64,000 nt of DNA from Escherichia coli. GTDB lineage: Bacteria > Pseudomonadota > Gammaproteobacteria > Enterobacterales > Enterobacteriaceae. The position numbers and the translations under genes were made by a program. Below the pieces are notes generated by a model, which worked only from the letters and a program-made list of their open reading frames with translations, was not told where the DNA came from and ran no database searches. Below, piece by piece: positions 1 through 48,356 of this stretch (positions within the stretch are counted from its first letter, which is position 1; every line of letters begins with the position of its first letter). Location: NCBI RefSeq assembly GCF_013315695.1, contig NZ_CP054353.1, one strand, 5' to 3'.

Positions 1-2263
1 GATGATGCGCTTCCTCTTCGCCACGCGCACGTTGCGCTAACATCTCTGCCCGGCGATGCTTCGCCCGATCAAACGCCAGCCTGCGGCGCTGGATCAGCAT
101 CCAGCGGCGGATAACGTGATAAACCACCAGTAGCAGGAACCAGATGGCAACCGAGGTTTCAAGCCTCGCTAACAGCGCCTGTGCCGTTGCCAGATAACCC
201 ACCGCCGACGCCAGAATGGCAACCAACGGCGCGCCAATCATCATGTTCCACAGCATATGGTTGGTAATGTTGTCGCCGCTGCCCTCTTTGTTGAGATACA
301 GCGGAATCCCGGCCTTTTTCAGGCTGAGGGTGACCACCGCCAGCGCACCGCAAATGAGGATAAAGCAAAGCCGTCCCAGCGAACCGGAGAATTCACGGTC
401 GTCGAGGTTATCGAACATCATCAGCGCCATAATCAGCGGCACAATAAGCCCGATGCTCATCAGGTAGTAGCGCATCCCACGGGAAACACGTTCGCGCGGC
501 CAGCCAAAATGAGCGATAAACAAGCCGTTCGGGCGGGCAAAGGTGGCGCAAATCATCACTACCCACAGCAGCGGCACGGTGGCCGTTACACCATCGCCAA
601 TCGCGACCGCCAGCGGATAAGGCCACGCCTCGCGCAAGCCGTAACCCAGCGTCATCCACAGCACCGGTAACGGTGACGCGACGAGAATCGACCAGAAAAG
701 AGTGCGCAACGTCAGCCAGAAGTGATCCTGAGTCACTTTGCCAACTTTCGCCGCCGAACGTTCAAGAAAACGGGTGAAATAGCGGCGCGAGTAAATACTG
801 CAACCGACCAGAATCAACGCGCCAAACAGCGGCAAAATTGTCTCTTTGCTGGTCAGCATCATCACACTGGCTTTGCCCAACTGACTGAAGGTGTCCAGCG
901 AAATGAGACGACGCAGATCCTGGGCGATTTCCAGCGGCCAGGCGATGGTCATCGGGCGCACGTCAGAGGTCCAGAACAGATAGCGGTGCGTTGCTTCGTT
1001 CACCTCTTTCAGCGCATCCTCCAGTTGCCCGTTGGAGACTTTCAGCTTGGTCAGTTCCAATAGTAGCGTGTCGCCACCCTGCAACAATGAGTTCAGCAAC
1101 TCACGCTGAGTGCGCAGTTGTGCTTCCAGAATACGGTTTTGCTCGGCAGTCAGCGGCTGACCGTCGGCCTGATGAATTTGCCGTAGCAGCGGCTGTTTAT
1201 TAAGCAGATCCTCATAACGTAACCGTTGCACACGCAACTGCGCCATTTCGGTATCAAGCTGTTGTGGTTTCGGCATTTCCGGCAGCCGTGCCACCTGCGC
1301 CCGCAGCGCTTCGCCGAGCAGATTGGACGATCCCAGCCATTGCGACTGTTCACGCAGCGTATTCAACGCCTGCCGGACCTGTAACGTCTGGCTGGCAGCC
1401 TGACGCTGTTGCGAGGCAACGAGATCCATCCGCTGCGCCTGTTGATTCAAAGCCGCCGATAGTTCGCGGTTAATTTTGAATTGCGCGACGATATCTTTCG
1501 GCAAATCGGCGCTGTTTTCTGCCAGCAATTCGGTACTTTCCAGCGCCCGCTCCGCCTCAAGCTGACGTTGGCTGTTTAATTGATTACGCAAGGCCTGCAA
1601 ATACGCATCCAGTTGCTGGCTCTCTTTTTCCGCCAGCTCTGAGCGTAAGCGCGCTAATTCCTGGCGGTTATTGGCAGACAGCTGCGCCAGCTCCAGTTCA
1701 TCAACGAGCGCCTTAAGACGTGCAGAGTCAGACTGCAACGCGAAATTTTGTGCCTGATTGAGCGGAGTATTGCCGGTAAGCGTTCCCAGGCGGCGCTCGA
1801 TCTCATTTAACTGACGGCGGGCGTCGGTTTGCTGTTGCGGCAGTTGATTCAGCGAATCGGCAATCTCGCGGGCGCGCTCCTGCTCTTGCTGGGCCTGACG
1901 GCTTTTATCCAGCAACTGGCTGCTGACCTGGAGAATTTCCTGATTCAGCGCGTCGGTAGACATTCCCGGCGACACGCTGCGCGGCTCGTCACGCATGTTG
2001 TTTAATTGTGCGCGCAGAGTAGCGGAGAGTTTCGGATAATTATCGATAACTTGCTGATATTGTTTGATGCGCTCAAGGGAACCTTTTCGTTCCTCAAGCG
2101 CATTTAAGGCAGACTGGAGCGCCTCTACGACTTCCGGCTGTGCGGGTTTCGCCGCTTTTGCCTGCTCCAGTTCCTGAGTGATTTGTTTGCTATCGGGGGC
2201 CGTCGCGGCGTACGCCCCCCAACTGAGGCACCAGGCCATCAGAAAAGTGATAATCAGGCGCAC
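1..2263 (-). CDS. mscM: Mechanosensitive channel MscM (YjeP), partial; N-terminus in window, C-terminal end runs off window start
   Basis: Reverse-strand frame is open from position 1 to GTG at 2261-2263; N-terminus reads MRLIITFLMAWCLSWGAYAATAPDS (signal peptide). Not in ORF track because it is partial. Confidence 0.85.
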   Translation of the reverse strand, partial: MRLIITFLMAWCLSWGAYAATAPDSKQITQELEQAKAAKPAQPEVVEALQSALNALEERKGSLERIKQYQQVIDNYPKLSATLRAQLNNMRDEPRSVSPGMSTDALNQEILQVSSQLLDKSRQAQQEQERAREIADSLNQLPQQQTDARRQLNEIERRLGTLTGNTPLNQAQNFALQSDSARLKALVDELELAQLSANNRQELARLRSELAEKESQQLDAYLQALRNQLNSQRQLEAERALESTELLAENSADLPKDIVAQFKINRELSAALNQQAQRMDLVASQQRQAASQTLQVRQALNTLREQSQWLGSSNLLGEALRAQVARLPEMPKPQQLDTEMAQLRVQRLRYEDLLNKQPLLRQIHQADGQPLTAEQNRILEAQLRTQRELLNSLLQGGDTLLLELTKLKVSNGQLEDALKEVNEATHRYLFWTSDVRPMTIAWPLEIAQDLRRLISLDTFSQLGKASVMMLTSKETILPLFGALILVGCSIYSRRYFTRFLERSAAKVGKVTQDHFWLTLRTLFWSILVASPLPVLWMTLGYGLREAWPYPLAVAIGDGVTATVPLLWVVMICATFARPNGLFIAHFGWPRERVSRGMRYYLMSIGLIVPLIMALMMFDNLDDREFSGSLGRLCFILICGALAVVTLSLKKAGIPLYLNKEGSGDNITNHMLWNMMIGAPLVAILASAVGYLATAQALLARLETSVAIWFLLLVVYHVIRRWMLIQRRRLAFDRAKHRRAEMLAQRARGEEEAHH

Positions 2264-2284
2264 GTCAGCGTTTCCTTTGATGGA

Positions 2285-3253
2285 TTAGACCTGGTCTTTT
2301 TTGTCGTCAACCAATGGGCTGGCGTCGTGTTCTGCTTCGATCTCTTCAGCAGGAAGCGGGGCAGGTTCAGCGTCTGGCGTAACAAAGGTTTCGGTAGATA
2401 CTGCCAGCGGCTGGCCAATTTTCGTGACAGACAGGCTTTCCAGTTGCTCAACCAGATTCACTTTACCCGGTGCAAACAGGTTGATAACGGTGGAACCGAG
2501 TTTAAAGCGACCCATTTCCTGGCCTTTCAGCAGTGCCACAGAACCGTCGTTTTCCCCGGCAGGCCAGGTCCAGCGCTTGATGATACCTTCGCGCGGCGGC
2601 GTAATGGTGCCCGCCCAGACCGTCTCAATGCTGCCAACAATCGTCGCTCCGACCAGAATCTGCGCCATTGGGCCAAATTCGGTATCGAAAAGGCAAATCA
2701 CGCGTTCGTTACGGGCAAACAGATTCGGCACGTTCTGAGCCGTGAGATGGTTAACGGAGAAGAGATCGCCCGGCACGTAGATCATCTCACGCAGAATACC
2801 GTTGCACGGCATGTGTACGCGGTGGTAGTCACGCGGGGAGAGGTAAGTGGTCACAAACGTACCGTTGCGGAACAGGTCCGCCATCAGATAGTTGCCTGCC
2901 AGCAGGGCTTCGAGGCTGTAGTTGTGGCCTTTGGCTTGCAGGATTTTATCTTCTTCGATTTTACCCAACTGGCTGATAACGCCATCGGCAGGCATGACCA
3001 GTACATTCGGATCGGTATCGATTGGGCGTACTTCGTCACGCAGCGGACGGACAAAGAATTCGTTAAAGGTGCGGTAGCTGGCGGTGTCCGGCTTTTGCGC
3101 CTCTTTCATGTCGACCTTGTAGTATTTAACGAACAGATCGATAACCAGTTTTGTCAGCCATCCTGCCCGCTTGCTTGCGCCCCAACCCGCCAGGCGAGTA
3201 AGCCATAGTTTCGGCAGAATGTACTGTAGCGAAAGTTTAAATGAATTTAACAA
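2285..3253 (-). CDS. psd: Phosphatidylserine decarboxylase proenzyme
   Basis: ORF 2285..3265; product reads [15 protein letters not shown]... from the TTG at 3251-3253, 322 aa, ending with the acidic tail typical of Psd. Confidence 0.93.
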
Positions 3254-3349
3254 GGTAGCCTCCAAGCCATTGTTTTGTCGTTCCTGATCCGGCCTACATG
3301 CCGGATCCTGAAAAAAAGGGGACGATTCTAACGACGGTTAGCTTAATTG

Positions 3350-4402
3350 TCAGTCATCCGTATCAGAAAAGTTTTTACGCGTTTTTACCTGCGCCATGCT
3401 TTCCAGAATACGGTGATAGTTTTCGAAACGGGTTTCCGCGATTTTCCCTTCCTCAACCGCTTCCCGGATAGCGCAGCCCGGATCGGTATCGTGTTTGCAA
3501 TCGCGATATTTACACAGACCTAAATAGTCATGGAATTCGACAAAGCCCTGAGTGATTTGTTCCGGCTCCAGGTGCCAGAGGCCGAACTCACGCACTCCTG
3601 GGGAGTCAATCACATCACCGCCGTGCGGGAAGTGATACAGCCGAGCGGCGGTCGTGGTGTGCTGACCGAGCCCCGAGTTGTCAGAGATATCGTTGGTCAG
3701 GATCTCTTTTTGCAGCCCCAGCAACGCATTCAGCAGGCTGGATTTGCCGACGCCAGACTGCCCGGCAAAAATGCTGATGCGCCCGGTCAACGCCTCTTCC
3801 AGCGGTTTTAGCCCATCCTGAGTATGGCTGGAAACCATCAATACGCGATAACCGATATTGCGGTAGATATCCATCTGCTCGTTGACGAACGCCATGCCTT
3901 CGTCGTCCAGCAGGTCTATCTTGTTGAGCACAATAATCGGCTCAATCTGCAAGGTTTCGCAGGCCACCAGGTAACGGTCGATAATATTGAGCGACAGCTC
4001 CGGCAAAATGGCGGAGACAATGACAATCTGGTCGATGTTGGCGGCAATAGGTTTTACGCCGTCGTAGAAATCCGGACGCGTCAACACCGAGGTACGCTCA
4101 TGCACCGCTTCCACGATCCCTTTGACATTTACGCCTTCCGCCGCCGGTTTACCCGGACGCCAGACTACGCGGTCGCCGGTTACCAGCGAACGGATGGTAC
4201 GGCGAATATTGCAGCGGTGAACGTCGCCATCGGCGGATTCCACATCAGCGTGCATACCAAAGCGGCTGATGACGATACCTTCATCAGGCTCGCCAAACAG
4301 ATTGTCGTCGTAGTCGGGCTTCTCCTTAGACGTTTTAAGACGACGCTGGTGATTGGCGTTCACGCGGCGCTGCTGGCCTTTGGAGAGTTTATTTTTACTC
4401 AA
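3350..4402 (-). CDS. rsgA: Ribosome small-subunit biogenesis GTPase RsgA
   Basis: ORF 3350..4435; circularly permuted GTPase motifs (GQSGVGKSS, DxxG) and C-terminal Zn-binding cysteines; 350 aa from TTG at 4400-4402. Confidence 0.9.
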
Positions 4403-4496
4403 TCGTACAGACTCCTGGTCGCCCCTGATGGGCAAAACATCTATGATACACGCAATTGTGGATCAATATAGTCACTGTGAATGGGTGGAAAATAGC

Positions 4497-5042
4497 ATGA
4501 GTGCCAATGAAAACAACCTGATTTGGATCGATCTTGAGATGACCGGTCTGGATCCCGAGCGCGATCGCATTATTGAGATTGCCACGCTGGTGACCGATGC
4601 CAACCTGAATATTCTGGCAGAAGGGCCGACCATTGCAGTACACCAGTCTGATGAACAGCTGGCGCTGATGGATGACTGGAACGTGCGCACCCATACCGCC
4701 AGCGGGCTGGTAGAGCGCGTGAAAGCGAGCACGATGGGCGATCGGGAAGCTGAACTGGCAACGCTCGAATTTTTAAAACAGTGGGTGCCTGCGGGAAAAT
4801 CGCCGATTTGCGGTAACAGCATCGGTCAGGACCGTCGTTTCCTGTTTAAATACATGCCGGAGCTGGAAGCCTACTTCCACTACCGTTATCTCGATGTCAG
4901 CACCCTGAAAGAGCTGGCGCGCCGCTGGAAGCCGGAAATTCTGGATGGTTTTACCAAGCAGGGGACGCATCAGGCGATGGATGATATCCGTGAATCGGTG
5001 GCGGAGCTGGCTTACTACCGCGAGCATTTTATCAAGCTGTAA
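4497..5042 (+). CDS. orn: Oligoribonuclease
   Basis: ORF 4353..5042; conserved start [23 protein letters not shown] at ATG 4497, 181 aa, DEDDh exonuclease motifs. Confidence 0.93.
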
Positions 5043-5166
5043 AATTTTTCCTGGTCACGTAAGCGCCGGAATCCACTTGCGGCGGCGTGATTTTGACGCT
5101 AAATTGAACGTCTTGCTGATAATTTCAGCACTTGAGATAAAAACGCAAAAAAACTTTTTTGGGGGG

Positions 5167-5194
5167 TTGCAGAGGGAAAGATTTCTCGTATAAT
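5167..5194 (+). promoter_or_regulatory. Candidate sigma70 promoter of the glyVXY tRNA operon (TTGCAG, 16 nt spacer, TATAAT, GC-rich discriminator)
   Basis: TTGCAG at 5167-5172 and TATAAT at 5189-5194, followed by GCGCCTCCC; A/T-rich UP-like tract upstream; about 55 nt before the first tRNA. Confidence 0.5.
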
Positions 5195-5251
5195 GCGCCT
5201 CCCGTAACGACGCAGAAATGCGAAAATTACGAAAGCAAAATTAAGTAGTAC

Positions 5252-5327
<76 letters not shown>

Positions 5328-5363
5328 AAATTTGAAAAGTGCTGCAAAGCACAGACCACCCAA

Positions 5364-5439
<76 letters not shown>

Positions 5440-5474
5440 AAATTTGAAAGTGCTGTAAGGCACAGACCACCCAA

Positions 5475-5550
<76 letters not shown>

Positions 5551-5564
5551 AATTCTTCTCTCAA

Positions 5565-5819
5565 TAAAATATCCACAGCGACGCGATGCGTTATTGCTGG
5601 TTTTTGTTGTCTCTGACAAACTCTTGTAAACAGAGTTATCCACAGCCTCAGGCTGTAATCTTAATTTCAAAGAAACTTCGCACGGTGAATAGTATTTTTT
5701 TAACCTATTGATAGATAAGTTAAAAATTAAGATTCCGTTTTGTCGAGTCGATCACTTGACGATTTTATTCGTCTTGAATTGCAATGCGTTTTTATTTTTA
5801 TTCACAAGCTGTGGATGAA
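5565..5819. promoter_or_regulatory. datA: datA-like DnaA-titration locus: cluster of DnaA boxes with a central IHF-consensus site
   Basis: DnaA-box 9-mers ATATCCACA (5569-5577), TTATCCACA (5636-5644, perfect consensus), TTATTCACA (5798-5806) and inverted TCATCCACA (5810-5818); IHF-like TATCAATAGGTTA on the minus strand near 5701-5714. Position between glyY and queG matches where datA lies in K-12 (from memory). Confidence 0.55.
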
Positions 5820-6957
5820 TCAGGCGTCACGCGGTAACCCTTTTTCAATCACCCGAACCAGACGCTGTTTTTTCGGCAATTGCACTTCGACTATGCACGC
5901 ATTTCGTCTCTCTATTTGCTGCGCAATCGCCCACGCTATGTGCTCATCGAGAAGTGGGTGCTCACCTTTACGACTTTCCAGCGCTGTCAAAATCGTTTCA
6001 TCCCAAGGGGCATTGCCTAATGCTACGGCGATATTACGCAGCCAACGCAGGTGACCAATACGACGAATCGCCGATCCTTCCGTGACTTTTAAAAACTTCT
6101 CTTCGCTCCAGGCGAATAACTCAATGAGTTCCGGTGCGTGTAGCGGCTTACGCGGGCTGAAATCCTCTTCTGTGGTGAGTTGTGAATAGCGATTCCACGG
6201 GCAGATAAGCTGGCAGTCATCGCAACCGTAAATACGGTTTCCCATTAACGGTCGCAACTCTTCCGGGATCGCCCCTTCAAGTTCGATGGTGAGATAAGAG
6301 ATACAGCGGCGAGCATCGACGGTATATGGCTCGACGATGGCACCGGTCGGGCAAATCGTCATACAGGCCACGCATTTGCCGCATCCTTCCTCGACTGGTT
6401 GATCCACGGGCAGCGGAATATCGACCAGCAATTCGCCTAAAAAGAAGAACGAACCGGCCTCGCGATTGAGGATAAGTGAGTGCTTACCTGTCCAGCCGAG
6501 CCCAGCTTTTTCAGCTAACGGGCGCTCGAGAATAGGCGCAGAATCGACAAACGGTCTAAAATTCAGCGAAACACAATGTTGCTGAATCATCTCGCCCAGC
6601 TTTTTGAGTCGGTTGCGCAGAAGTTTGTGATAGTCACGGCCCAGCGCATAACGGCTAACATAGCCGAGTTTGGGGTTTTTCAGCGTGCTGGCAAATGCGG
6701 TGTTAGCAGGAAGGTAATTCATCCGCACGCTGATCACGCGCAGCGTACCGGGCAATAACTCATGAGGGCGAGCGCGCAGCATACCGTGACGTGCCATCCA
6801 GTCCATTTCGCCGTGGTATTGTTTGTCCAGCCATGCTTGCAGTTTGGGCTCGGACTCGCTGAGATCGGTATCGGTAATACCTACCTGCTGAAAGCCCAGT
6901 TCCAGCCCCCACTGTTTAATTTTTTGCGCTAACTGATTGAGATCGAGGGGCTCTGAC

Positions 6958-6959
<2 letters not shown>
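5820..6959 (-). CDS. queG: Epoxyqueuosine reductase QueG (YjeS)
   Basis: ORF 5820..7067; conserved start MSEPLDLNQLAQKIK at ATG 6957-6959; 4Fe-4S ferredoxin cysteine motifs (CGKCVACMTICP, CDDCQLICP); 379 aa. Confidence 0.9.
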
Positions 6960-8938
<1,979 letters not shown>

Positions 8939-8956
8939 CCTTTGAAAGGTGGCGGG

Positions 8957-10294
8957 ATGATGTATCGCATCAGAAATTGGTTGGTAGCGACGCTGCTGCT
9001 GCTGTGCACGCCGGTGGGTGCCGCGACGCTCTCTGATATTCAGGTTTCTAACGGTAATCAACAGGCGCGGATAACGTTGAGTTTTATTGGCGATCCTGAT
9101 TATGCGTTTAGCCATCAAAGCAAACGCACCGTGGCGCTCGATATCAAACAAACGGGCGTGATTCAGGGACTGCCGTTGTTGTTCAGCGGCAATAATCTGG
9201 TGAAGGCGATTCGCTCTGGAACGCCTAAAGATGCACAAACGCTACGGCTGGTGGTCGATCTTACCGAAAACGGTAAAACCGAAGCGGTGAAGCGGCAGAA
9301 TGGCAGCAATTACACTGTCGTCTTTACGATTAACGCCGATGTGCCGCCACCGCCTCCTCCGCCGCCCGTGGTTGCGAAACGCGTTGAAACGCCTGCGGTT
9401 GTCGCACCGCGCGTCAGCGAACCGGCGCGCAATCCGTTTAAAACGGAAAGTAACCGCACTACGGGTGTTATCAGCAGTAATACGGTAACGCGTCCGGCAG
9501 CGCGCGCGACGGCTAACACTGGCGATAAAATTATCATCGCTATTGATGCCGGACACGGCGGTCAGGACCCTGGCGCTATCGGCCCCGGTGGTACGCGGGA
9601 GAAAAATGTCACCATCGCCATCGCGCGTAAATTGCGTACTTTGCTCAATGACGATCCGATGTTTAAAGGCGTTTTAACCCGTGACGGGGATTACTTTATC
9701 TCGGTGATGGGGCGCAGTGATGTGGCACGTAAGCAAAACGCCAATTTCCTCGTGTCGATTCACGCTGATGCCGCACCGAACCGCAGTGCGACTGGCGCTT
9801 CCGTATGGGTGCTCTCTAACCGTCGCGCCAACAGTGAAATGGCCAGCTGGCTGGAGCAGCACGAGAAACAGTCGGAGCTGCTGGGTGGGGCGGGTGATGT
9901 GCTGGCGAACAGTCAGTCTGACCCCTATTTAAGCCAGGCGGTGCTGGATTTACAGTTCGGTCATTCCCAGCGGGTAGGGTATGATGTAGCGACCAGTATG
10001 ATCAGTCAGTTGCAACGCATTGGCGAAATACATAAACGTCGACCAGAACACGCCAGCCTTGGCGTTCTGCGCTCGCCGGATATCCCATCAGTACTGGTCG
10101 AAACCGGTTTTATCAGCAACAACAGCGAAGAACGTTTGCTGGCGAGCGACGATTACCAACAACAGCTGGCAGAAGCCATTTACAAAGGCCTGCGCAATTA
10201 CTTCCTTGCGCATCCGATGCAATCTGCGCCGCAGGGTGCAACGGCACAAACTGCCAGTACGGTGACGACGCCAGATCGCACGCTGCCAAACTAA
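8957..10294 (+). CDS. amiB: N-acetylmuramoyl-L-alanine amidase AmiB
   Basis: ORF 8942..10294; signal peptide [23 protein letters not shown] from ATG 8957; AMIN domain, poly-Pro linker, Amidase_3 domain; 445 aa. Confidence 0.9.
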
Positions 10295-10303
10295 GGACGA
10301 TTG

Positions 10304-12151
10304 ATGCCAATTCAGGTCTTACCGCCACAACTGGCGAACCAGATTGCCGCAGGTGAGGTGGTCGAGCGACCTGCGTCGGTAGTCAAAGAACTAGTGGAAA
10401 ACAGCCTCGATGCAGGTGCGACGCGTATCGATATTGATATCGAACGCGGTGGGGCGAAACTTATCCGCATTCGTGATAACGGCTGCGGTATCAAAAAAGA
10501 TGAGCTGGCGCTGGCGCTGGCTCGTCATGCCACCAGTAAAATCGCCTCTCTGGACGATCTCGAAGCCATTATCAGCCTGGGCTTTCGCGGTGAGGCGCTG
10601 GCGAGTATCAGTTCGGTTTCCCGCCTGACGCTCACTTCACGCACCGCAGAACAGCAGGAAGCCTGGCAGGCCTATGCCGAAGGGCGCGATATGAACGTGA
10701 CGGTAAAACCGGCGGCGCATCCTGTGGGGACGACGCTGGAGGTGCTGGATCTGTTCTACAACACCCCGGCGCGGCGCAAATTCCTGCGCACCGAGAAAAC
10801 CGAATTTAACCACATTGATGAGATCATCCGCCGCATTGCGCTGGCGCGTTTCGACGTCACGATCAACCTGTCGCATAACGGTAAAATTGTGCGTCAGTAC
10901 CGCGCAGTGCCGGAAGGCGGGCAAAAAGAACGGCGCTTAGGCGCGATTTGCGGCACCGCTTTTCTTGAACAAGCGCTGGCGATTGAATGGCAACACGGCG
11001 ATCTCACGCTACGCGGCTGGGTGGCCGATCCAAATCACACCACGCCCGCACTGGCAGAAATTCAGTATTGCTACGTGAACGGTCGCATGATGCGCGATCG
11101 CCTGATCAATCACGCGATCCGCCAGGCCTGCGAAGACAAACTGGGGGCCGATCAGCAACCGGCATTTGTGTTGTATCTGGAGATCGACCCACATCAGGTG
11201 GACGTCAACGTGCACCCCGCCAAACACGAAGTGCGTTTCCATCAGTCGCGTCTGGTGCATGATTTTATCTATCAGGGCGTGCTGAGCGTGCTACAACAGC
11301 AACTGGAAACGCCGCTACCGCTGGACGATGAACCCCAACCTGCACCGCGTTCCATTCCGGAAAACCGCGTGGCGGCGGGGCGCAATCACTTTGCAGAACC
11401 GGCAGCTCGTGAGCCGGTAGCTCCGCGCTACACTCCTGCGCCAGCATCAGGCAGTCGTCCGGCTGCCCCCTGGCCGAATGCGCAGCCAGGCTACCAGAAA
11501 CAGCAAGGTGAAGTGTATCGCCAGCTTTTGCAAACGCCCGCGCCGATGCAAAAATTAAAAGCGCCGGAACCGCAGGAACCTGCACTTGCGGCGAACAGTC
11601 AGAGTTTTGGTCGGGTACTGACTATCGTCCATTCCGACTGTGCGTTGCTGGAGCGCGACGGCAACATTTCACTTTTATCCTTGCCAGTGGCAGAACGTTG
11701 GCTGCGTCAGGCACAATTGACGCCGGGTGAAGCGCCCGTTTGCGCCCAGCCGCTGCTGATTCCGTTGCGGCTAAAAGTTTCTGCCGAAGAAAAATCGGCA
11801 TTAGAAAAAGCGCAGTCTGCCCTAGCGGAATTGGGTATTGATTTCCAGTCAGATGCACAGCATGTGACCATCAGGGCAGTGCCTTTACCCTTACGCCAAC
11901 AAAATTTACAAATCTTGATTCCTGAACTGATAGGCTACCTGGCGAAGCAGTCCGTATTCGAACCTGGCAATATTGCGCAGTGGATTGCACGAAATCTGAT
12001 GAGCGAACATGCGCAGTGGTCAATGGCACAGGCCATAACCCTGCTGGCGGACGTGGAACGGTTATGTCCGCAACTTGTGAAAACGCCGCCGGGTGGTCTG
12101 TTACAATCTGTTGATTTACATCCGGCGATAAAAGCCCTGAAAGATGAGTGA
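10304..12151 (+). CDS. mutL: DNA mismatch repair protein MutL
   Basis: ORF 10301..12151; GHKL ATPase N-terminus ([23 protein letters not shown]), 615 aa; appears intact. Confidence 0.95.
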
Positions 12152-13094
12152 TATCAGTAAGGCGAGCCTGCCTAAGGCGATTTTTTTGATGGGGCCGACG
12201 GCCTCCGGTAAAACGGCGTTAGCCATTGAGCTGCGTAAAATTTTACCAGTAGAGTTGATAAGCGTTGATTCTGCCCTTATTTACAAAGGGATGGATATCG
12301 GGACGGCGAAGCCGAACGCTGAAGAGTTACTCGCCGCGCCGCACCGATTGCTGGATATTCGCGATCCGTCGCAGGCTTACTCGGCTGCTGATTTTCGCCG
12401 CGATGCGCTGGCGGAAATGGCCGATATCACCGCGGCGGGGCGGATCCCACTGTTAGTGGGCGGTACGATGTTGTATTTCAAGGCATTGCTGGAAGGGTTG
12501 TCGCCGCTACCGTCGGCAGACCCGGAAGTACGGGCCAGAATTGAGCAACAGGCGGCAGAGCAAGGTTGGGAGTCATTGCATCGTCAACTTCAGGAGGTAG
12601 ATCCGGTTGCGGCAGCAAGGATTCATCCAAATGATCCACAAAGGCTTTCCCGGGCACTGGAAGTTTTTTTCATTTCGGGTAAAACTTTAACGGAACTGAC
12701 GCAAACGTCAGGAGACGCTCTACCGTATCAGGTGCATCAGTTCGCCATCGCCCCGGCGAGCCGTGAACTGCTCCATCAACGCATTGAGCAGCGTTTTCAT
12801 CAGATGTTGGCTTCAGGTTTTGAAGCAGAAGTCCGGGCGCTTTTTGCCCGAGGAGATTTGCATACGGACTTGCCTTCCATTCGTTGCGTGGGTTATCGCC
12901 AGATGTGGTCTTACCTTGAAGGCGAAATCTCATACGATGAAATGGTTTATCGAGGTGTTTGCGCCACGAGACAGTTGGCGAAGCGGCAGATAACCTGGCT
13001 GCGTGGTTGGGAAGGGGTTCACTGGCTTGACAGTGAAAAACCAGAACAGGCGCGTGACGAAGTATTACAGGTTGTTGGTGCTATCGCAGGCTGA
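12144..13094 (+). CDS. miaA: tRNA dimethylallyltransferase MiaA
   Basis: ORF 12144..13094, 316 aa, P-loop GPTASGKT; overlaps the mutL stop. Confidence 0.95.
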
Positions 13095-13167
13095 ATGTGT
13101 ACAATTGAGACGTATCGTGCGCAATTTTTTCAGAATCGAAAGGTTCAAAGTACAAATAAGCATATAA

Positions 13168-13488
<321 letters not shown>

Positions 13489-13563
13489 GGTTTCGGGCTG
13501 TTTTTTTACACGGGGAGCCAGCGATCCTGCGTTCCCCGCTGATCTATTTAGAGGGTTATACGC

Positions 13564-14844
13564 TTGTTTGACCGTTATGATGCTGGTGAGCAGGCGGTAC
13601 TGGTACACATCTATTTTACGCAAGACAAAGATATGGAAGACCTCCAGGAGTTTGAATCTCTGGTCTCTTCCGCCGGTGTCGAAGCATTGCAGGTGATTAC
13701 CGGTAGCCGTAAAGCGCCGCACCCAAAGTATTTTGTAGGTGAAGGTAAAGCAGTTGAAATTGCGGAAGCTGTCAAAGCGACGGGTGCTTCGGTCGTTCTT
13801 TTTGACCATGCCCTGAGCCCGGCGCAAGAGCGTAACCTGGAGCGTTTGTGCGAGTGTCGTGTTATCGACCGCACCGGCCTTATTTTAGATATTTTCGCCC
13901 AACGTGCGCGTACCCATGAGGGTAAGTTGCAGGTTGAGCTGGCGCAGCTGCGCCATCTGGCTACGCGCCTGGTGCGTGGCTGGACCCACCTTGAAAGACA
14001 GAAAGGCGGGATAGGTTTGCGTGGTCCGGGTGAAACCCAGCTCGAAACCGACCGTCGTTTGTTGCGTAATCGCATCGTGCAGATACAGTCGCGCCTGGAA
14101 AGAGTTGAAAAGCAGCGTGAGCAGGGGCGGCAATCGCGTATCAAAGCCGACGTTCCTACTGTTTCGCTGGTGGGATATACCAACGCCGGTAAATCTACCC
14201 TTTTCAATCGCATCACCGAAGCGCGGGTCTACGCGGCAGACCAGTTGTTTGCCACCCTCGACCCGACGTTGCGGCGTATTGACGTTGCAGATGTCGGTGA
14301 AACCGTACTTGCAGATACCGTAGGGTTTATTCGCCACCTGCCGCACGATCTGGTGGCGGCATTTAAAGCCACGTTACAAGAGACGCGGCAAGCCACATTA
14401 CTGCTGCACGTCATTGATGCGGCGGATGTGCGTGTACAAGAAAACATCGAAGCGGTGAATACGGTTCTTGAAGAGATCGACGCTCACGAGATCCCAACCC
14501 TGCTGGTGATGAACAAGATCGATATGCTGGAAGATTTCGAACCGCGTATTGATCGGGACGAAGAGAACAAACCGATCCGTGTCTGGCTTTCCGCACAGAC
14601 CGGAGCGGGGATACCACAGCTTTTTCAGGCTTTGACGGAGCGGCTTTCCGGCGAGGTGGCGCAGCATACATTGCGTCTGCCACCGCAGGAAGGGCGTCTG
14701 AGAAGTCGTTTTTATCAGCTTCAGGCAATAGAAAAAGAGTGGATGGAGGAGGACGGCAGCGTAAGTCTGCAAGTTCGTATGCCGATCGTTGACTGGCGTC
14801 GCCTCTGTAAACAAGAACCGGCGTTGATCGATTACCTGATCTAA
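13564..14844 (+). CDS. hflX: Ribosome-associated GTPase HflX
   Basis: ORF 13564..14844 (TTG start), 426 aa, G-domain motifs GYTNAGKST and DTVGF. Confidence 0.93.
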
Positions 14845-14929
14845 CGGCGTAGCGTCTGAAGCGTGGAGTCATATCCTCTGGCGTCGAAAGACAACAGGGA
14901 TCACCGCATAACAAATATGGAGCACAAAC

Positions 14930-16189
14930 ATGGCGTGGAATCAGCCCGGTAATAACGGACAAGACCGCGACCCGTGGGGAAGCAGCAAACCTGGCGGCAA
15001 CTCTGAGGGAAATGGAAACAAAGGCGGTCGCGATCAAGGGCCACCTGATTTAGATGATATCTTCCGCAAACTGAGCAAAAAGCTCGGTGGTCTGGGCGGC
15101 GGTAAAGGCACCGGATCTGGCGGTGGCAGTTCATCGCAAGGCCCGCGCCCGCAGCTTGGCGGTCGTGTCGTTACCATCGCAGCGGCAGCGATTGTCATTA
15201 TCTGGGCGGCCAGTGGTTTCTATACCATTAAAGAAGCCGAACGCGGCGTGGTAACACGCTTTGGTAAATTCAGCCATCTGGTTGAGCCGGGTCTGAACTG
15301 GAAACCGACGTTTATCGACGAAGTCAAACCGGTGAACGTGGAAGCCGTGCGTGAACTGGCCGCTTCTGGTGTGATGCTGACGTCGGACGAGAACGTAGTG
15401 CGCGTTGAGATGAACGTGCAGTACCGCGTCACCAATCCGGAAAAATATCTGTATAGCGTGACCAGCCCGGATGACAGCCTGCGTCAGGCTACCGACAGCG
15501 CCCTGCGTGGAGTTATCGGTAAATACACCATGGACCGCATTCTGACGGAAGGTCGTACCGTGATTCGTAGCGATACTCAGCGCGAACTGGAAGAGACGAT
15601 TCGTCCGTATGACATGGGTATCACGCTGCTGGACGTCAACTTCCAGGCTGCTCGTCCGCCGGAAGAAGTAAAAGCGGCGTTTGACGATGCGATTGCCGCG
15701 CGTGAAAACGAACAGCAATACATTCGTGAAGCAGAAGCGTATACCAACGAAGTTCAGCCGCGTGCGAACGGTCAGGCGCAACGTATCCTCGAAGAGGCGC
15801 GTGCGTACAAGGCCCAGACCATCCTGGAAGCTCAGGGTGAAGTGGCGCGCTTTGCTAAACTTCTGCCGGAATATAAAGCCGCGCCGGAAATTACTCGCGA
15901 GCGTCTGTATATCGAGACGATGGAAAAAGTGTTGGGTAACACCCGCAAAGTGCTGGTTAACGATAAAGGTGGCAACCTGATGGTTCTGCCGTTAGACCAG
16001 ATGCTGAAAGGTGGTAACGCCCCTGCGGCGAAGAGCGATAACGGTGCCAGCAATCTGCTGCGTCTGCCGCCAGCCTCTTCCTCCACAACCAGTGGAGCAA
16101 GCAACACGTCGTCCACCAGTCAGGGCGATATTATGGACCAACGCCGCGCCAACGCGCAGCGTAACGACTACCAGCGTCAGGGGGAATAA
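14930..16189 (+). CDS. hflK: FtsH modulator HflK (SPFH/band-7 family)
   Basis: ORF 14930..16189, 419 aa, Gly-rich N-terminus, TM segment and SPFH domain. Confidence 0.95.
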   Translation: MAWNQPGNNGQDRDPWGSSKPGGNSEGNGNKGGRDQGPPDLDDIFRKLSKKLGGLGGGKGTGSGGGSSSQGPRPQLGGRVVTIAAAAIVIIWAASGFYTIKEAERGVVTRFGKFSHLVEPGLNWKPTFIDEVKPVNVEAVRELAASGVMLTSDENVVRVEMNVQYRVTNPEKYLYSVTSPDDSLRQATDSALRGVIGKYTMDRILTEGRTVIRSDTQRELEETIRPYDMGITLLDVNFQAARPPEEVKAAFDDAIAARENEQQYIREAEAYTNEVQPRANGQAQRILEEARAYKAQTILEAQGEVARFAKLLPEYKAAPEITRERLYIETMEKVLGNTRKVLVNDKGGNLMVLPLDQMLKGGNAPAAKSDNGASNLLRLPPASSSTTSGASNTSSTSQGDIMDQRRANAQRNDYQRQGE

Positions 16190-36575: not shown

Positions 36576-37640
36576 TTACAGGAATGACTTGAATGGCAGA
36601 TCCGGTTCAATAGTGAAGCAATCATCGAAACCGCGCGGATAGTGGTACTCGAAGTTGTCTTTATCCAGCGGCCAGGTAAATTTGCCGCCCACCTGCCAGA
36701 TAAACGGCTTGAAGCCATACTTCAGACGATCTTTTTTCATCTCCCACAGCACGCGGATCTCTTGCGGATCGGCCTGGAAGTTTGACCAGATATCGTGGTG
36801 GAACGGGATAACCACTTTCGCATTCAGCGCTTCACCCATACGCAGCATATCGGCGCTGGTCATTTTGTCGGTAATACCGCGCGGGTTTTCGCCGTATGAA
36901 CCTAAAGCCACGTCGATCTGATGTTCGTTACCGTGCTTCGCATAATAGTTAGAGTAGTGGGAGTCGCCGCTGTGATACAGGGAGCCGCCAGGCGTTTTGA
37001 ACAGGTAGTTCACCGCGCGATCGTCCATGCCATCTGGCAGTACGCCAGCCGCTTTTTGATCGGCAGGCAGGGTGATCAGTGCAGTACGGTCGAAAGCATC
37101 AAACGCATGAATTTCAATGTCTTTCACTTTTACTACATCGCCCGGTTTGACCACGATGCAACGCTCTTTCGGTACGCCCCAGCCAATCCACAAATCCACA
37201 CAGGTTTTCGGTCCAATGAACGGTACGTCATCAGCACCGTTCTGCATCACAGCAGCAGCGACGTTGACGTCGATATGATCGTTGTGATCGTGAGTCGCCA
37301 GTACCGCGTCGACCTGGCGAATCGCAAACGGATCAAGAACAAACGGGGTGGTGCGCAGGTTTGGCTGCAGTTTTTTCACGCCAGCCATGCGCTGCATCTG
37401 GTGACCCTGTTTCATTAACGGGTTACCGTGACTTTGTTTGCCAGTGCCGCACCAGAAATCAACGCAAACGTTGGTGCCACCTTCCGATTTTAACCAGATC
37501 CCGGTGCAGCCAAGCCACCACATCGCAAATGTGCCAGGTGCGACCTGTTCTTGTTCAATTTCTTCATTCAACCAGCTACCCCACTCCGGGAAAGTGCTCA
37601 GGATCTAGGATTCACGGGTGATACTTTTCACTTTACTCAT
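36576..37640 (-). pseudogene. ulaG: L-ascorbate-6-phosphate lactonase ulaG with an in-frame amber stop at codon 12
   Basis: ATG at 37638-37640 reads MSKVKSITRES, then TAG (plus-strand CTA at 37605-37607), then continues in frame as [18 protein letters not shown]... into ORF 36576..37571 (metallo-beta-lactamase fold, HxHxDH). Confidence 0.75.
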
Positions 37641-37937: not shown

Positions 37938-39392
<1,455 letters not shown>

Positions 39393-39407: not shown

Positions 39408-39713
39408 ATGACCGTACGTATTCTGGCTGTCTGTGGCAACGGACAAGGCAGTTCCATGATCATGAAGATGAAAGTGGACCAGTTTTTAACCCAATCAAAC
39501 ATTGACCACACGGTAAACAGCTGCGCGGTTGGCGAATACAAAAGCGAGTTGAGCGGCGCGGATATCATCATCGCTTCTACGCACATTGCGGGCGAAATCA
39601 CCGTGACCGGCAACAAATACGTGGTTGGTGTGCGCAACATGCTCTCTCCTGCCGACTTTGGCCCGAAACTGCTGGAAGTGATCAAAGAGCATTTCCTGCA
39701 GGATGTGAAGTAA
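39408..39713 (+). CDS. ulaB: Ascorbate-specific PTS EIIB component UlaB
   Basis: ORF 39402..39713; start [16 protein letters not shown] at ATG 39408, 101 aa, phospho-Cys motif. Confidence 0.92.
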
Positions 39714-39722
39714 GGACGCGCC

Positions 39723-40160
39723 ATGAAATTACGTGATTCGCTGGCGGAAGCTGAGACATGGCAGGACGCAGTGAAAATCGGCGTGGACCTGCTGGTAGCG
39801 GCAGATGTGGTAGAGCCGCGTTACTACCAGGCGATTCTGGATGGCGTTGAACAGTTTGGTCCTTATTTCGTTATCGCTCCGGGGCTGGCAATGCCGCACG
39901 GGCGTCCGGAAGAGGGCGTTAAGAAAACCGGTTTCTCTCTGGTAACGCTGAAAAAGCAGCTGGAATTTAACCACGACGACAACGATCCGGTGGATATCCT
40001 CATCACCATGGCGGCGGTTGATGCCAACACTCACCAGGAAGTAGGCATCATGCAGATCGTCAACCTGTTTGAAGATGAAGAGAATTTCGACCGTTTACGC
40101 GCCTGCCGTACCGAGCAGGAAGTACTGGATCTCATTGACCGCACCAACGCGGCAGCTTAA
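39723..40160 (+). CDS. ulaC: Ascorbate-specific PTS EIIA component UlaC, 145 aa; appears to lack about 9 N-terminal residues relative to the 154-aa K-12 form
   Basis: ORF 39723..40160 reads [20 protein letters not shown]; the K-12 protein as recalled has NKSIRLQAE between these, so a 27-bp in-frame deletion at 39749/39750 is inferred. Confidence 0.8.
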
Positions 40161-40173
40161 GAAGGAATTGAAC

Positions 40174-40824
40174 ATGTCATTACCGATGTTGCAAGTCGCG
40201 CTGGACAACCAGACTATGGATAGCGCCTACGAAACCACTCGCCTGATTGCCGAAGAAGTCGACATTATCGAAGTGGGTACCATTCTGTGCGTGGGCGAAG
40301 GCGTGCGTGCGGTTCGCGATCTGAAAGCGCTCTACCCGCACAAAATCGTGCTGGCAGACGCCAAAATTGCCGATGCGGGCAAAACTCTTTCTCGTATGTG
40401 CTTCGAAGCCAACGCTGACTGGGTGACCGTAATTTGTTGTGCGGATATCAACACCGCCAAAGGTGCGCTGGACGTGGCAAAAGAGTTTAACGGCGACGTG
40501 CAGATCGAACTGACCGGTTACTGGACCTGGGAACAGGCGCAACAGTGGCGCGACGCAGGTATTCAGCAGGTGGTTTATCACCGCAGCCGTGACGCGCAGG
40601 CCGCTGGCGTGGCGTGGGGTGAAGCCGATATCACTGCGATCAAACGTCTTTCCGATATGGGCTTCAAAGTCACCGTCACCGGTGGCCTGGCGCTGGAAGA
40701 TCTGCCGCTGTTCAAAGGCATTCCAATTCATGTGTTTATCGCCGGTCGCAGCATCCGTGATGCCGCTTCTCCGGTTGAAGCCGCGCGTCAGTTCAAACGT
40801 TCCATCGCCGAACTGTGGGGCTAA
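40174..40824 (+). CDS. ulaD: 3-keto-L-gulonate-6-phosphate decarboxylase UlaD
   Basis: ORF 40069..40824; start [19 protein letters not shown] at ATG 40174, 216 aa. Confidence 0.92.
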
Positions 40825-40833
40825 GGAGCGGAT

Positions 40834-41688
40834 ATGTTGTCCAAACAAATCCCGCTTGGCATCTATGAAAAAGCGCTCCCCGCCGGGGAGTGCTGGCTGG
40901 AACGCCTGCGACTGGCAAAAACGTTGGGCTTCGATTTTGTCGAGATGTCGGTAGATGAAACGGACGAGCGCCTGTCGCGCCTCGACTGGAGCCGCGAGCA
41001 GCGTCTGGCGCTGGTGAATGCGATTGTTGAAACCGGCGTGCGTGTGCCGTCCATGTGCCTTTCTGCCCATCGTCGTTTCCCGTTGGGCAGCGAAGATGAC
41101 GCGGTGCGGGCGCAGGGGCTGGAGATTATGCGTAAAGCCATCCAGTTCGCCCAGGACGTTGGCATTCGCGTGATCCAGCTGGCGGGCTATGACGTTTACT
41201 ATCAGGAAGCCAATAACGAAACGCGTCGTCGTTTCCGTGACGGCCTGAAAGAGAGCGTTGAGATGGCGAGCCGCGCGCAGGTGACGCTGGCGATGGAGAT
41301 CATGGATTACCCATTGATGAACTCCATCAGCAAGGCGCTGGGCTACGCGCACTATCTCAACAACCCGTGGTTCCAGCTCTACCCGGATATCGGCAACCTG
41401 TCGGCGTGGGACAACGATGTGCAGATGGAATTGCAGGCCGGAATAGGGCATATCGTCGCGGTGCATGTGAAAGACACCAAACCTGGCGTCTTCAAAAACG
41501 TGCCATTTGGCGAAGGCGTGGTGGATTTCGAACGTTGCTTTGAAACGCTCAAACAGAGTGGCTATTGCGGGCCGTACCTGATTGAGATGTGGAGCGAAAC
41601 GGCGGAAGACCCGGCGGCAGAAGTGGCGAAAGCGCGTGATTGGGTGAAAGCGCGCATGGCCAAAGCAGGCATGGTGGAGGCTGCATAA
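40834..41688 (+). CDS. ulaE: L-ribulose-5-phosphate 3-epimerase UlaE
   Basis: ORF 40834..41688, 284 aa, xylose-isomerase-like TIM barrel. Confidence 0.92.
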
Positions 41689-42323
41689 TGCAAAAGCTAA
41701 AACAGCAGGTGTTTGAAGCCAACATGGATCTGCCGCGCTATGGGCTGGTGGTGATCAAGCCCAGCGGCGTCGCCTACGAAACCATGAAAGCAGACGATAT
41801 GGTGGTGGTTGATATGAGCGGCAGGGTGGTGGAAGGGGAGTATCGCCCATCTTCCGACACCGCGACGCATCTCGAACTCTACCGTCGTTACCCGTCGCTT
41901 GGCGGCATTGTCCATACCCACTCCACTCATGCCACCGCATGGGCGCAGGCGGGGCTGGCGATCCTGGCGTTAGGCACCACGCACGCTAACTACTTCTTTG
42001 GTGATATCCCGTGTACGCGTGGATTAAGCGAAGAAGAGGTGCAGGGTGAGTATGAACTGAACACTGGCAAAGTGATTATCGAAACGCTGGGTGACGCCGA
42101 GCCGCTGCATACGCCGGGAATTGTGGTGTATCAGCACGGGCCGTTCGCCTGGGGGAAAAATGCCCACGATGCGGTGCATAACGCGGTGGTGATGGAGGAA
42201 GTGGCAAAAATGGCGTGGATTGCGCGCAGTATTAACCCACAACTGAATCACATCGACAGCTTCCTCATGAATAAACACTTCATGCGTAAGCACGGTCCTA
42301 ACGCCTATTACGGGCAGAAGTAA
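41688..42323 (+). CDS. ulaF: L-ribulose-5-phosphate 4-epimerase UlaF, 211 aa; in-frame deletion of 17 codons removing the conserved TxTWGNVS region (probably inactive)
   Basis: ORF 41640..42323; from ATG 41688 reads [31 protein letters not shown]; AraD/UlaF-family proteins have ...[26 protein letters not shown]... here; junction at 41741-41750 within a GGGCTGGTG repeat. Confidence 0.8.
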
Positions 42324-42419: not shown

Positions 42420-42971
42420 ATGGCTATCAATGGATTGTTTGTCAGAACGGATCCGCAGCGTCGCCGCTATGGCGTTGCGTTACTTGTGGGTGTGCTTTCA
42501 GGAATTATTTCAGCATTTGTTAAATGGGGAGCGGAAGTCCCCTTGCCACCGCGCACATTTTCCGGTGGTCGCGATGAATTTAACCCGCCGTATATCTTTC
42601 TACGAGATTATTTAGGTATCGACCCAACCCAAACTGTGTATACCTTCTCGGAACATATTATCAACCCGGTGATGGTGACGCATATCATCTTCTCCCTGGT
42701 TTTTGCGATAGGGTATTGTGTTGTCGCGGAAATTTTCCCGAAAGTGAAATTATGGCAGGGGATATTAGCAGGGCTTATTGTGACAGTGGCAGTCCACGGT
42801 ATATTTTGCCCGGCGCTGAATTTAACGCCGCCGCTCACTCAATTGCCTTTTGACGAATATGCGTCTGAAATCTTGGGGCATATTTTCTGGTTCTGGATAA
42901 TAGAGATTATGCGCCGCGACTTACGTAATCGCATTACTCATGAGCCGGATCCGGAAGTCGCAATTCGGTGA
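42420..42971 (+). CDS. YagU-like inner-membrane protein (DUF1440 family)
   Basis: ORF 42420..42971, 183 aa; RRRYG...[15 protein letters not shown]...NPPYIFLRD...THIIFS..GYCVVAE...[13 protein letters not shown] pattern resembles E. coli YagU; 3-4 predicted TM helices. Confidence 0.7.
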
Positions 42972-45952: not shown

Positions 45953-46298
45953 TGTAATGTTACCTGTTTAATGTTTTTATAAATATCGCAGCTGATGTTC
46001 ACAGAAAAAGAATCGATATTAATAAAAATAAGTTTGTTTTCTGAAGTAGTGAAAATAGCGGATGGTGAAAGATATTAATATCAAAAATCGCTCATTATGG
46101 ATATAACGATGCCCCCGGGGAGAAAATGACTTCCACGCCTTCTACCATACATTCTTGTTGTGCGGTATGTAATTATTCTACGCTGTTGGTATCGGTGCGT
46201 TTGTTAATCATCTGGTTAACCAGCCACAAAAAGCCATTGAGAAAGTTATTGATTCTACATGGAATTATTATATTTCTAATCCCTGGTTTTTAAAAGTT

Positions 46299-46514
46299 GT
46301 GCATAGTGAAAATCAAAGTAAAGGTGTGCATTATGCAAAATCACAGCGTCTCTTAGAAATTAACCATACGCACTTGCAGTTAATGGAATCCTTATTGGAT
46401 GAAGGGAAGAAACACAATATTTTTAAGCCAGATAGCGACCCATTGCAGGTGAATATTAATATTGCTGCGCTTGGGGGATATTATTTGATCAACCAGCATA
46501 CGCTTGGCCTGGTT
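46299..46514 (+). pseudogene. ytfA: ytfA-like remnant of a TetR-family regulator (C-terminal ligand-binding portion only), followed by the IS left end
   Basis: ORF 46299..46790 begins with TetR C-terminal-like sequence and no HTH, then reads through the IS left-end hairpin; the distal part is not genuine coding sequence. Confidence 0.45.
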
Positions 46515-46574
46515 TATCTGGTGCGCCGTAAAACCCCGTCCTTCAGGGCGGGGATATACGGCGCGGTTTTCCAC

Positions 46575-47006
46575 CTAACCAGGTGTTTGCTGTTGTTCAA
46601 TGTATTGACGGATGGCGGATATTGGCGCACCTCCGCAGCTACTGGCAAAATAGCCAGGACTCCACAAAACGCCTTTGTAGTAATACCTGACTGCAATATC
46701 TGGTCGATCTCGTCGCAGTCACCTACCCGATACGCCTTTGAGGCTGTTTACCAGACTGGATATCGCCAGTTTGGGAGGATAGTTAATTAACAAATGGACG
46801 TGATCTGGTTCGCCATCCATTTCAACCAGTTCAGCTTCAAAATCAGCACATACATTTGAAAAGTAAGTGCGTAGTTTTTCTGTCGCGTCATAGTCAAAAA
46901 TCTGACGTCGGTATCTGGTGACAAAGACCAGGTGAACATGCATCAGGAAAACACAATGCCTTCCCCGTCGGATATCGGTTTCTTTATTCACAGACCAAAG
47001 TATCAT
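46575..47006 (-). pseudogene. tnpA: IS200-type Y1 (HUH) transposase TnpA interrupted by an in-frame TGA at codon 96
   Basis: ORF track 46719..47006 gives 95 aa (...[27 protein letters not shown]); the same frame continues past the TGA as [44 protein letters not shown], the conserved TnpA C-terminus. Confidence 0.7.
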
Positions 47007-47013
47007 TTGGCCT

Positions 47014-48222
47014 GTGAAACGACTACAGGCATTTAAATTCCAGTTAAGACCCGGTGGTCAACAGGAGCGTGAAATGAGGCGCTTCGCAGGCGCATGCCGT
47101 TTCGTTTTCAATCGTGCTCTGGCGCTTCAGAATGAGAATCATGAGGCCGGTAATAAATACATCCCTTACGGGAAAATGGCTTCCTGGCTGGTTGAGTGGA
47201 AAAACGCCACTGAAATGCAATGGCTTAAAGATTCGCCCTCACAGCCATTGCAACAGTCACTGAAAGACCTTGAGCGGGCTTACAAAAACTTCTTCCAGAA
47301 GCGGGCTGCTTTTCCCCGATTCAAAAAGCGGGGACAGAATGATGCATTCCGCTACCCGCAGGGCGTTAAGCTCGATCAGGAAAACAGCCGTATTTTTCTG
47401 CCGAAACTTGGCTGGATGCGCTACCGGAACAGCCGTCAGGTCACGGGTGTTGTGAAAAATGTCACTGTCAGCCAGTCCTGCGGTAAGTGGTACATCAGTA
47501 TTCAGACAGAAAGTGAAGTATCCACTCCGGTTCACCCTTCAGCATCAATGGTCGGGCTGGATGCTGGCGTGGCTAAACTCGCCACGCTGTCAGATGGCAC
47601 AGTCTTTGAGCCTGTAAACAGTTTTCAGAAAAACCAGAAGACGCTGGCGAGACTTCAGCGACAGTTAAGCCGCAAGGTCGAATTCAGCAATAACTGGCAG
47701 AAGCAGAAACGCAAAATACAGCGACTGCATTCCCGTATCGCAAATATCCGCAGGGACTACCTTCACAAAGTCACAACGACCGTCAGCAAAAACCACGCAA
47801 TGATAGTCATTGAGGATTTGAAGGTCAGCAACATGTCAAAGTCAGCAGCGGGTACGGTCAGCCAGCCGGGGCGCAATGTCCGGGCAAAATCAGGTTTAAA
47901 CCGTTCGATACTGGATCAGGGCTGGTATGAAATGCGCCGCCAGCTTGAGTACAAGCAGCTCTGGCGTGGCGGTCAGGTGCTTGCTGTTCCGCCAGCGTAC
48001 ACAAGCCAGCGTTGCGCGTGCTGTGGTCATACAGCGAAAGAAAATCGCCTGTCACAAAGTAAATTCAGATGCCAGGCATGTGGATATACAGCGAACGCTG
48101 ATGTAAATGGCGCTCGTAACATTTTAGCGGCGGGGCACGCCGTTCTTGCCTGTGGAGAGATGGTGCAGTCAGGCCGCTCGTTGAAGCAGGAACCCACCGA
48201 AATGATTCAGGCGACAGCCTGA
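47014..48222 (+). CDS. tnpB: TnpB (IS605 OrfB-family RuvC-like RNA-guided nuclease)
   Basis: ORF 47014..48222, 402 aa, GTG start; C-terminal zinc finger CACCGH...CQACG and RuvC-III-like ADVNGARNI. Confidence 0.85.
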
Positions 48223-48356
48223 ACGAAGCAGGGATCCACGTCCTTCAGGGCGTGGAGGATGTCAACATATCAGTATGGTTTCCCCCCAGGCACTGGAAGC
48301 CAGACGTAAGGTCATCAAAGAGACGCTCCTTAGCTGGCTTTTGGTTGATCCTTCAT

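Follow-up and report, generated by a model that had tools for sequence, protein, structure and literature searches.

A shortened ulaC allele in an Escherichia coli lineage with a probably decaying L-ascorbate regulon

Ascorbate EIIA components and the ulaC allele of the window

The known systems nearest to the gene under study are the EIIA components of L-ascorbate phosphotransferase systems. In E. coli K-12, His68 of UlaC (SgaA, b4195) has been named as the phosphate acceptor in a relay described as running from HPr to UlaC and from UlaC to UlaB (PMC6048161). Two ascorbate-type EIIA proteins with solved structures, PtxA from Streptococcus mutans (PDB 3BJV) and SPy0176 from S. pyogenes (PDB 2OQT), have the same EIIA-2 fold and 44% identity to K-12 UlaC, and an N-terminal N-x-S-I-R-L motif is conserved from Streptococcus to E. 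coli. Deletion of the EIIA gene ptxA in S. mutans slowed growth on ascorbate and did not abolish it (PMC4802650); since some growth is left, a defect in EIIA alone may be leaky.

The stretch of E. coli DNA analysed here (64,000 nt, hereafter the window) carries the complete ula locus, with ulaR and ulaG on the minus strand and ulaABCDEF on the plus strand, and the gene order ulaG/ulaABCDEF is that of K-12. The EIIA gene, ulaC (39723..40160, plus strand), is the same gene at the same place as in K-12, between ulaB and ulaD and next to the genes for its cognate EIIC and EIIB; it is recognized in the list of open reading frames, by Pfam and NCBIfam profiles and in the RefSeq annotation of 10 genomes. 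Its product, identical to RefSeq WP_000776496.1, is 145 aa long, exactly nine codons (27 nt) shorter than the 154-aa UlaC of K-12 MG1655. The initial annotation had reported an in-frame deletion of nine codons near the N-terminus, leaving a 145-aa protein, and had given the K-12 protein as 154 aa long with the segment NKSIRLQAE at this place. Size, lost residues and resulting length are all borne out by the open reading frame list and the comparison with K-12, in which this length and segment (residues 10-18) match exactly, and the junction (39746..39750, plus strand), as located by a gap-placement scan against K-12 and by a three-way alignment with KL53 and 503025, falls inside the interval 39740-39760 proposed there. 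The scan leaves the placement ambiguous by 3 nt (nt 24-27 of the ORF, equivalent to window 39746-39750), because the gap has GAA at either end; the longer repeat around it is not perfect (GGCGGAA versus GGCTGAA).

Outside the gap, the window protein differs from K-12 UlaC at two residues only, E24D and P88Q. The latter (CAG, 39957..39959, plus strand) replaces a nearly invariant proline, conserved in at least 90% of an alignment of 34 sequences that includes four solved homologues. The phospho-accepting histidine of the A-M-P-H-G motif, invariant in the same alignment, is present: its CAC codon is found at 39897..39899 (plus strand; His68 in K-12 numbering, PMC6048161, and His59 in the window).

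What the deletion takes away can be read from the AlphaFold model of K-12 UlaC (mean pLDDT 92.8), in which a helix at residues 3-10 is followed by strand beta1 (13-17) and a second helix (22-35). As judged from this model, the deletion removes the whole beta1 strand of the EIIA-2 fold, so that the window protein falls short of a complete EIIA-2 domain with its N-terminal strand; gone with it are N10, I13 and L15, each at least 90% conserved among the 34 sequences. The model of the 145-aa protein has a mean pLDDT of 80.6 and a pTM of 0.78, with a low-confidence N-terminus and with C-terminal helices that fall to a pLDDT of 60-74. Its residues 5-8 are drawn as a substitute strand at the former place of beta1, at a pLDDT of about 65. 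The drop in confidence, which is not a measure of stability, is only suggestive, and a partial rescue of the fold is conceivable.

Profile searches register the same loss. The match to Pfam PF00359 (PTS_EIIA_2) scores 107.8 bits against a cut-off of 27 and covers profile positions 13-142; it starts at position 13 of 144, compared with position 4 for K-12 UlaC. The UlaC equivalog profile, NCBIfam NF007694, is matched at 305.4 bits over positions 17-154, and RefSeq probably leaves the gene unflagged because this score stays above the cut-off of 187.

These observations bear on the reading in which the shorter length of the 145-aa form is a neutral, tolerated polymorphism that has nothing to do with the damage in ulaF and ulaG described below, with a protein that folds by means of its substitute N-terminal strand and works. 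The strand drawn by AlphaFold, the intact His68 and remaining domain, the score well above the equivalog cut-off, and the invariance of UlaC across 11 sequences of the lineage would all fit. However, the surrogate strand and the model as a whole have lower confidence, P88Q comes on top of the loss of three nearly invariant residues, no deletion at the beta1 position of UlaC occurs in any of 120 listed homologues, and the accompanying ulaF and ulaG lesions would make a working pathway unlikely in any case. We therefore regard a fully tolerated polymorphism as unlikely.

A derived deletion in one lineage

To place the allele among its relatives, a 1.1-kb query (1,101 nt) spanning ulaB to ulaD was searched against 5,426 complete E. 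coli genomes, 5,422 of which gave a match. Ten genomes matched at 99.9-100% identity over the same length, and the next-best matches, at 95.7% identity, span 1,128 nt instead of 1,101, from which it follows that they carry the extra 27 nt. The ten deletion genomes encode the identical protein, WP_000776496.1, and stem from isolates collected in seven countries, with urine, cheese, beef, a horse, biosolids and a toy as their sources; one member, FAM21845, has been assigned to ST1434 (PMC5514686). The exact 145-aa sequence was found on 566 contigs, and the index of the assembly collection lists it in 1,202 blocks. By this distribution, the ulaC deletion is inherited across one whole E. coli lineage.

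One might have suspected that the gap was an artefact of sequencing or assembly at a short repeat, given that the junction sits between short repeats and that the window has private single-base lesions elsewhere (the qorB frameshift and the tnpA stop described below). An identical 27-nt gap in ten independently sequenced complete genomes, and in hundreds of further contigs, leaves this reading with practically no probability, and it was rejected. Read support across the junction, which the initial annotation had listed among its checks, is made unnecessary by the agreement of independent assemblies. It had also named related strains with the same 145-aa UlaC as evidence against a damaging deletion. 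Such strains do exist, in the form of the ten complete genomes, but they carry the same allele by descent, together with the ulaF lesions and in most cases the ulaG lesion, and so exclude an artefact while staying silent on function; they lend no support to a working protein.

The short form is also derived rather than ancestral. The alignment with reference UlaC and other EIIA-2 domains, proposed in the initial annotation, confirmed the 27-nt gap: the segment deleted in the window is present in all aligned Enterobacterales relatives, as well as in the streptococcal 3BJV and 2OQT. An ancestral short form with an insertion elsewhere was rejected, since the segment is found in all outgroup homologues. 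The lengths of the listed homologues from other Enterobacterales fall within 152-164 aa, apart from two calls that are fusions or extended and a sporadic variant of 146 aa, and no other natural EIIA without beta1 was found among the 120 listed homologues. Internal deletions turned up in only two of the six homologue sequences retrieved, P0060 and P0031, both of them sporadic variants with the deletion at a different position. The possibility that the ula locus is unusually divergent, or was imported, was likewise rejected, because the synonymous divergence of the window from K-12 or 503025 is about that between those two intact alleles.

Lesions in the rest of the ula locus and its surroundings

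The closest described counterpart of UlaF, the L-ribulose-5-phosphate 4-epimerase encoded by the last gene of the operon, is AraD, in which Asp120 has been reported as a catalytic residue (PMC5434028). Alignment of the window with KL53, 503025 and K-12 brought out further lesions in the regulon. In the window, ulaF (41688..42323, plus strand) codes for 211 aa instead of 228, and its match to the class II aldolase profile, Pfam PF00596 (Aldolase_II), begins at profile position 31, not at position 1. A 51-nt in-frame deletion (junction 41741..41751, plus strand) has removed TFTWGNVSAIDRERGLV (17 aa) between 10-nt direct repeats, (C/T)GGGCTGGTG, with 11 equivalent positions in the gap-placement scan, and has left the N-terminal region, including the conserved T-W-G-N-V-S segment, incomplete. 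In addition, alignment to the AraD chains 1JDI and 1K0W equates UlaF D118N (AAC, 41988..41990, plus strand) with AraD D120N, so that the window protein has Asn in place of the catalytic aspartate; the aligned position is the single difference, D versus N, between the two PDB chains in the printed alignment. The ulaF lineage allele thus carries the substitution of the AraD D120N mutant (PDB 1K0W), with the difference that here it arose naturally and is joined by the 17-aa N-terminal deletion and, in the window, by P110L (K-12 numbering; 41964..41966, plus strand). P110L, which replaces a proline also present at the aligned position of AraD, is confined to the window and to EcPF7. A 63-mer containing the Asn codon of D118N is matched exactly in no other genomes than the ten with the ulaC deletion; in many others, one base differs. 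Two further UlaF differences, A53D and D175N, bring in the residue that AraD has at the same place and were regarded as probably harmless. A defect in UlaF could also be covered by the paralogous 4-epimerases of E. coli, AraD and SgbE.

On the other side of the locus, ulaG (L-ascorbate-6-phosphate lactonase; 36576..37640, minus strand) is interrupted by an amber codon, W12* (TGG to TAG at codon 12; 37605..37607, minus strand), in the window and in nine of the ten complete genomes. The RefSeq product of 342 aa begins just past this stop, and the first canonical start in the window gives 331 aa in the open reading frame list. No uninterrupted frame runs from the conserved start in the window, and among the 11 sequences ulaG is intact in A30 alone, which keeps TGG. 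The remaining genes show no such damage in the window: ulaA (EIIC; 37995-39392, plus strand), ulaB (EIIB; 39408-39713, plus strand), ulaD (40174-40824, plus strand) and ulaE (40834-41688, plus strand) are full length, and the repressor gene ulaR (35713..36468, minus strand) codes for an amino-acid sequence identical to that of K-12. In the divergent promoter region between ulaG and ulaA, a run of T has seven residues rather than six at window position 37708, in the window and in EcPF7.

The distribution of these changes gives a partial order of events. The ulaC deletion, UlaC P88Q, the ulaF deletion and UlaF D118N are common to the window and all ten genomes, and this shared pattern places the second repeat-flanked deletion (51 nt in ulaF) and UlaF D118N on the same ancestral branch as the ulaC deletion. 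Either the ulaC or the ulaF lesion could have been the first hit. The ulaG nonsense codon and two further amino-acid changes came later than the shared lesions, because A30 (from a horse in Canada), with its intact ulaG, retains the ancestral W12, C135 and L180. A secondary gain of ulaG by A30 through recombination was rejected, as its ulaG has zero synonymous differences from the rest of the clade. Decay has also continued in a sub-lineage: CP065611.1 (L028), which has the same ulaC allele, has undergone a further loss of about 200 nt (window 40786-40986), flanked by AGCCGCG repeats, that takes away the 3′ end of ulaD and the 5′ end of ulaE, so that both genes are partly deleted.

Where the alleles are intact, ula genes appear to be well maintained. 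Comparison of K-12 with 503025 over ulaR, ulaG and ulaA-F gave 161 synonymous and 13 nonsynonymous differences, and the per-gene dN/dS of 0.00-0.08 indicates strong constraint on intact alleles. Among the 11 clade sequences, the ula genes (6.1 kb) have 4 synonymous, 12 nonsynonymous and 1 nonsense changes, compared with 15 synonymous, 11 nonsynonymous and no nonsense changes in the flanking non-IS genes of the same haplotype block, from bsmA to msrA (16.0 kb). Amino-acid changes are thus about three times as dense per kilobase in the ula genes as in the flanks, at a similar synonymous density, and the ratio of nonsynonymous or nonsense to synonymous changes (13:4 versus 11:15) differs with modest significance (Fisher's exact test, p = 0.034). 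A first count, with 13 nonsynonymous or nonsense and 3 synonymous changes, gave a within-clade dN/dS of about 1.3 for the ula genes; three more draft or complete genomes added 5 nonsynonymous and 2 synonymous ula changes, and ulaB, ulaC and ulaE have no amino-acid variation at all among the 11 sequences. The numbers are small, and they point to relaxed constraint on the ula genes of this clade.

Several independent lesions in one regulon, together with an allele as widespread as this one, might instead be taken to mean that inactivation of ascorbate uptake or catabolism was positively selected in some niche, such as the gut, dairy or the urinary tract. An unrelated genome with internal stops of its own in ulaD, ulaE and ulaG, SCPM-O-B-12142, would agree with such adaptive loss. 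Yet one knockout would suffice for it, and the later hits are what neutral decay predicts; the isolates come from mixed sources with no link to a niche in the data, and the within-clade dN/dS of about 1.3 fits neutrality. Selection for loss is accordingly considered quite improbable.

The genome just mentioned (NZ_CP144928.1) is annotated, over a stretch of about 30 kb, with a frameshift in ytfI and with internal stops in ulaD, ulaE, ulaG, yjfJ and yjfM; this may mean that ula was lost independently there, or that the assembly is of low quality. It also closely matches another part of the window. EcPF7 (urine, Dallas) agrees almost completely with the window between about 16 kb and 64 kb; about 20 differences separate the two, and 12 of these fall inside an IS element at 46-48 kb. 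At positions 1-16000, about 390 sites differ from EcPF7, and the sequence is 99.98% identical (4 mismatches) to SCPM-O-B-12142, with NCTC86 about as close; this switch of haplotype, from one resembling SCPM-O-B-12142 and NCTC86 to one resembling EcPF7, implies a recombination boundary near 16 kb, and none of the complete genomes compared agrees with the window over its full length. The first of these parts contains three tandem tRNA-Gly genes downstream of orn (5252-5552), in the usual glyV-glyX-glyY arrangement, which appear as internal repeats in the BLAST comparison.

Other genes near ula are interrupted as well. In the window and EcPF7, yjfI (28148-28549) has an internal stop, Q40*; KL53, A30 and 873.10 have a different haplotype at the yjf cluster, in which yjfJ stops at codon 26 and yjfM at codon 75, and the different stops imply that the yjfIJKLMC cluster was broken independently in related genomes. 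Between ulaF and yjfY lies a YagU/DUF1440-family gene (42420-42971) that is absent from the corresponding K-12 site and present in 603 of the 5,426 complete genomes; it gave no NCBIfam match, and is interrupted by an IS in one relative (L026). Further downstream, in the ytfA region, a TetR-family pseudogene contains an inserted IS200/IS605 element (about 46200-48300) with tnpA and a TnpB/InsQ gene. The tnpA of this element (46575-47006, minus strand) has a nonsense codon, L96*, at 46720 in the window only, and its tnpB varies to an unusual degree from one clade genome to another, perhaps through exchange between copies of the IS. Finally, qorB (53442-54303, minus strand) has a one-base insertion at 54247, in a short A/T run, so that the frame shifts after codon 18. 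None of the other nine clade genomes that could be compared at qorB has this insertion, which may be either a mutation private to the window or an error of sequencing.

Regulon decay in comparison with known systems

Overall, the 145-aa ulaC is most likely a natural loss-of-function allele, or at best a severely weakened one, in a ula regulon that is being lost in one lineage. The initial annotation had called the protein probably compromised, a judgement that gains support from the loss of beta1 and of nearly invariant residues, the later start of the Pfam match, the lower AlphaFold confidence and the other broken genes of the pathway. The ulaG stop and the further lesions that keep accumulating are stronger signs of an unmaintained pathway than the EIIA defect alone.

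The 27-, 51- and approximately 200-nt deletions may have arisen by replication slippage, or by another microhomology-mediated mechanism, at short direct repeats. Without beta1, UlaC would be expected to fold poorly, and phosphate would pass only inefficiently from HPr to His68 of UlaC, from there to UlaB, and on to ascorbate. The inducer recognized by UlaR is L-ascorbate-6-phosphate. If uptake fails, this inducer would not be formed, the intact UlaR would keep the regulon repressed, and the remaining genes would be free to drift.

Decay has nevertheless spared a good deal, including His68 and most of the UlaC fold, and ulaA, ulaB, ulaD, ulaE and ulaR are intact in the window. Both large deletions, in ulaC and ulaF, are in frame, which could hint at residual constraint, although by chance this would be expected in about 1 case in 9. 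The in-frame deletions, the intact ulaA, ulaB, ulaD, ulaE and ulaR, and the invariance of ulaB, ulaC and ulaE within the clade are the grounds for a reading in which the locus has been remodelled rather than simply lost, either with the short UlaC as a working or repurposed EIIA that has an altered partner or a regulatory role, or with the loss of ascorbate use under selection. We consider remodelling of this kind rather improbable, and return to loss of function as the preferred explanation.

The ulaC allele itself is already in RefSeq under a normal product name, and the decay of carbohydrate operons lineage by lineage is a familiar process. What has gone unrecorded so far is that the RefSeq-annotated ulaC, ulaF and ulaG of this lineage are, to judge from their sequences, probably defective; in the literature on ula pseudogenes in E. 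coli and on the strain names of the clade, nothing was found on an ascorbate phenotype. In every genome of the lineage, the 145-aa UlaC, the 211-aa UlaF and the restarted UlaG bear the RefSeq names of ordinary proteins, and metabolic reconstructions built on these names would credit the strains with an ascorbate fermentation that they probably lack. The main value of the case lies in annotation and metabolic prediction, and no new biological question is opened by it; the locus is a clean, small example of regulon decay, in which apparently repeat-mediated in-frame deletions were followed by a nonsense codon and then by deletions in sub-lineages.

Relative to K-12 UlaC, the window allele keeps His68, lacks residues 10-18 with the beta1 strand, carries P88Q, and belongs to an operon in which ulaF and ulaG are damaged as well; both solved streptococcal counterparts, 3BJV and 2OQT, contain the segment that it has lost. 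The pseudogenization of sugar-utilization operons is known as part of reductive evolution in Shigella and in host-restricted Salmonella. The ula locus of this lineage resembles those cases in its several hits per pathway, in apparently relaxed selection after the first of them, and in decay that continues in sub-lineages. It differs from them in that the lineage is not apparently broadly degraded, and in that two of the lesions are in frame, so that the ula genes look intact to annotation pipelines.
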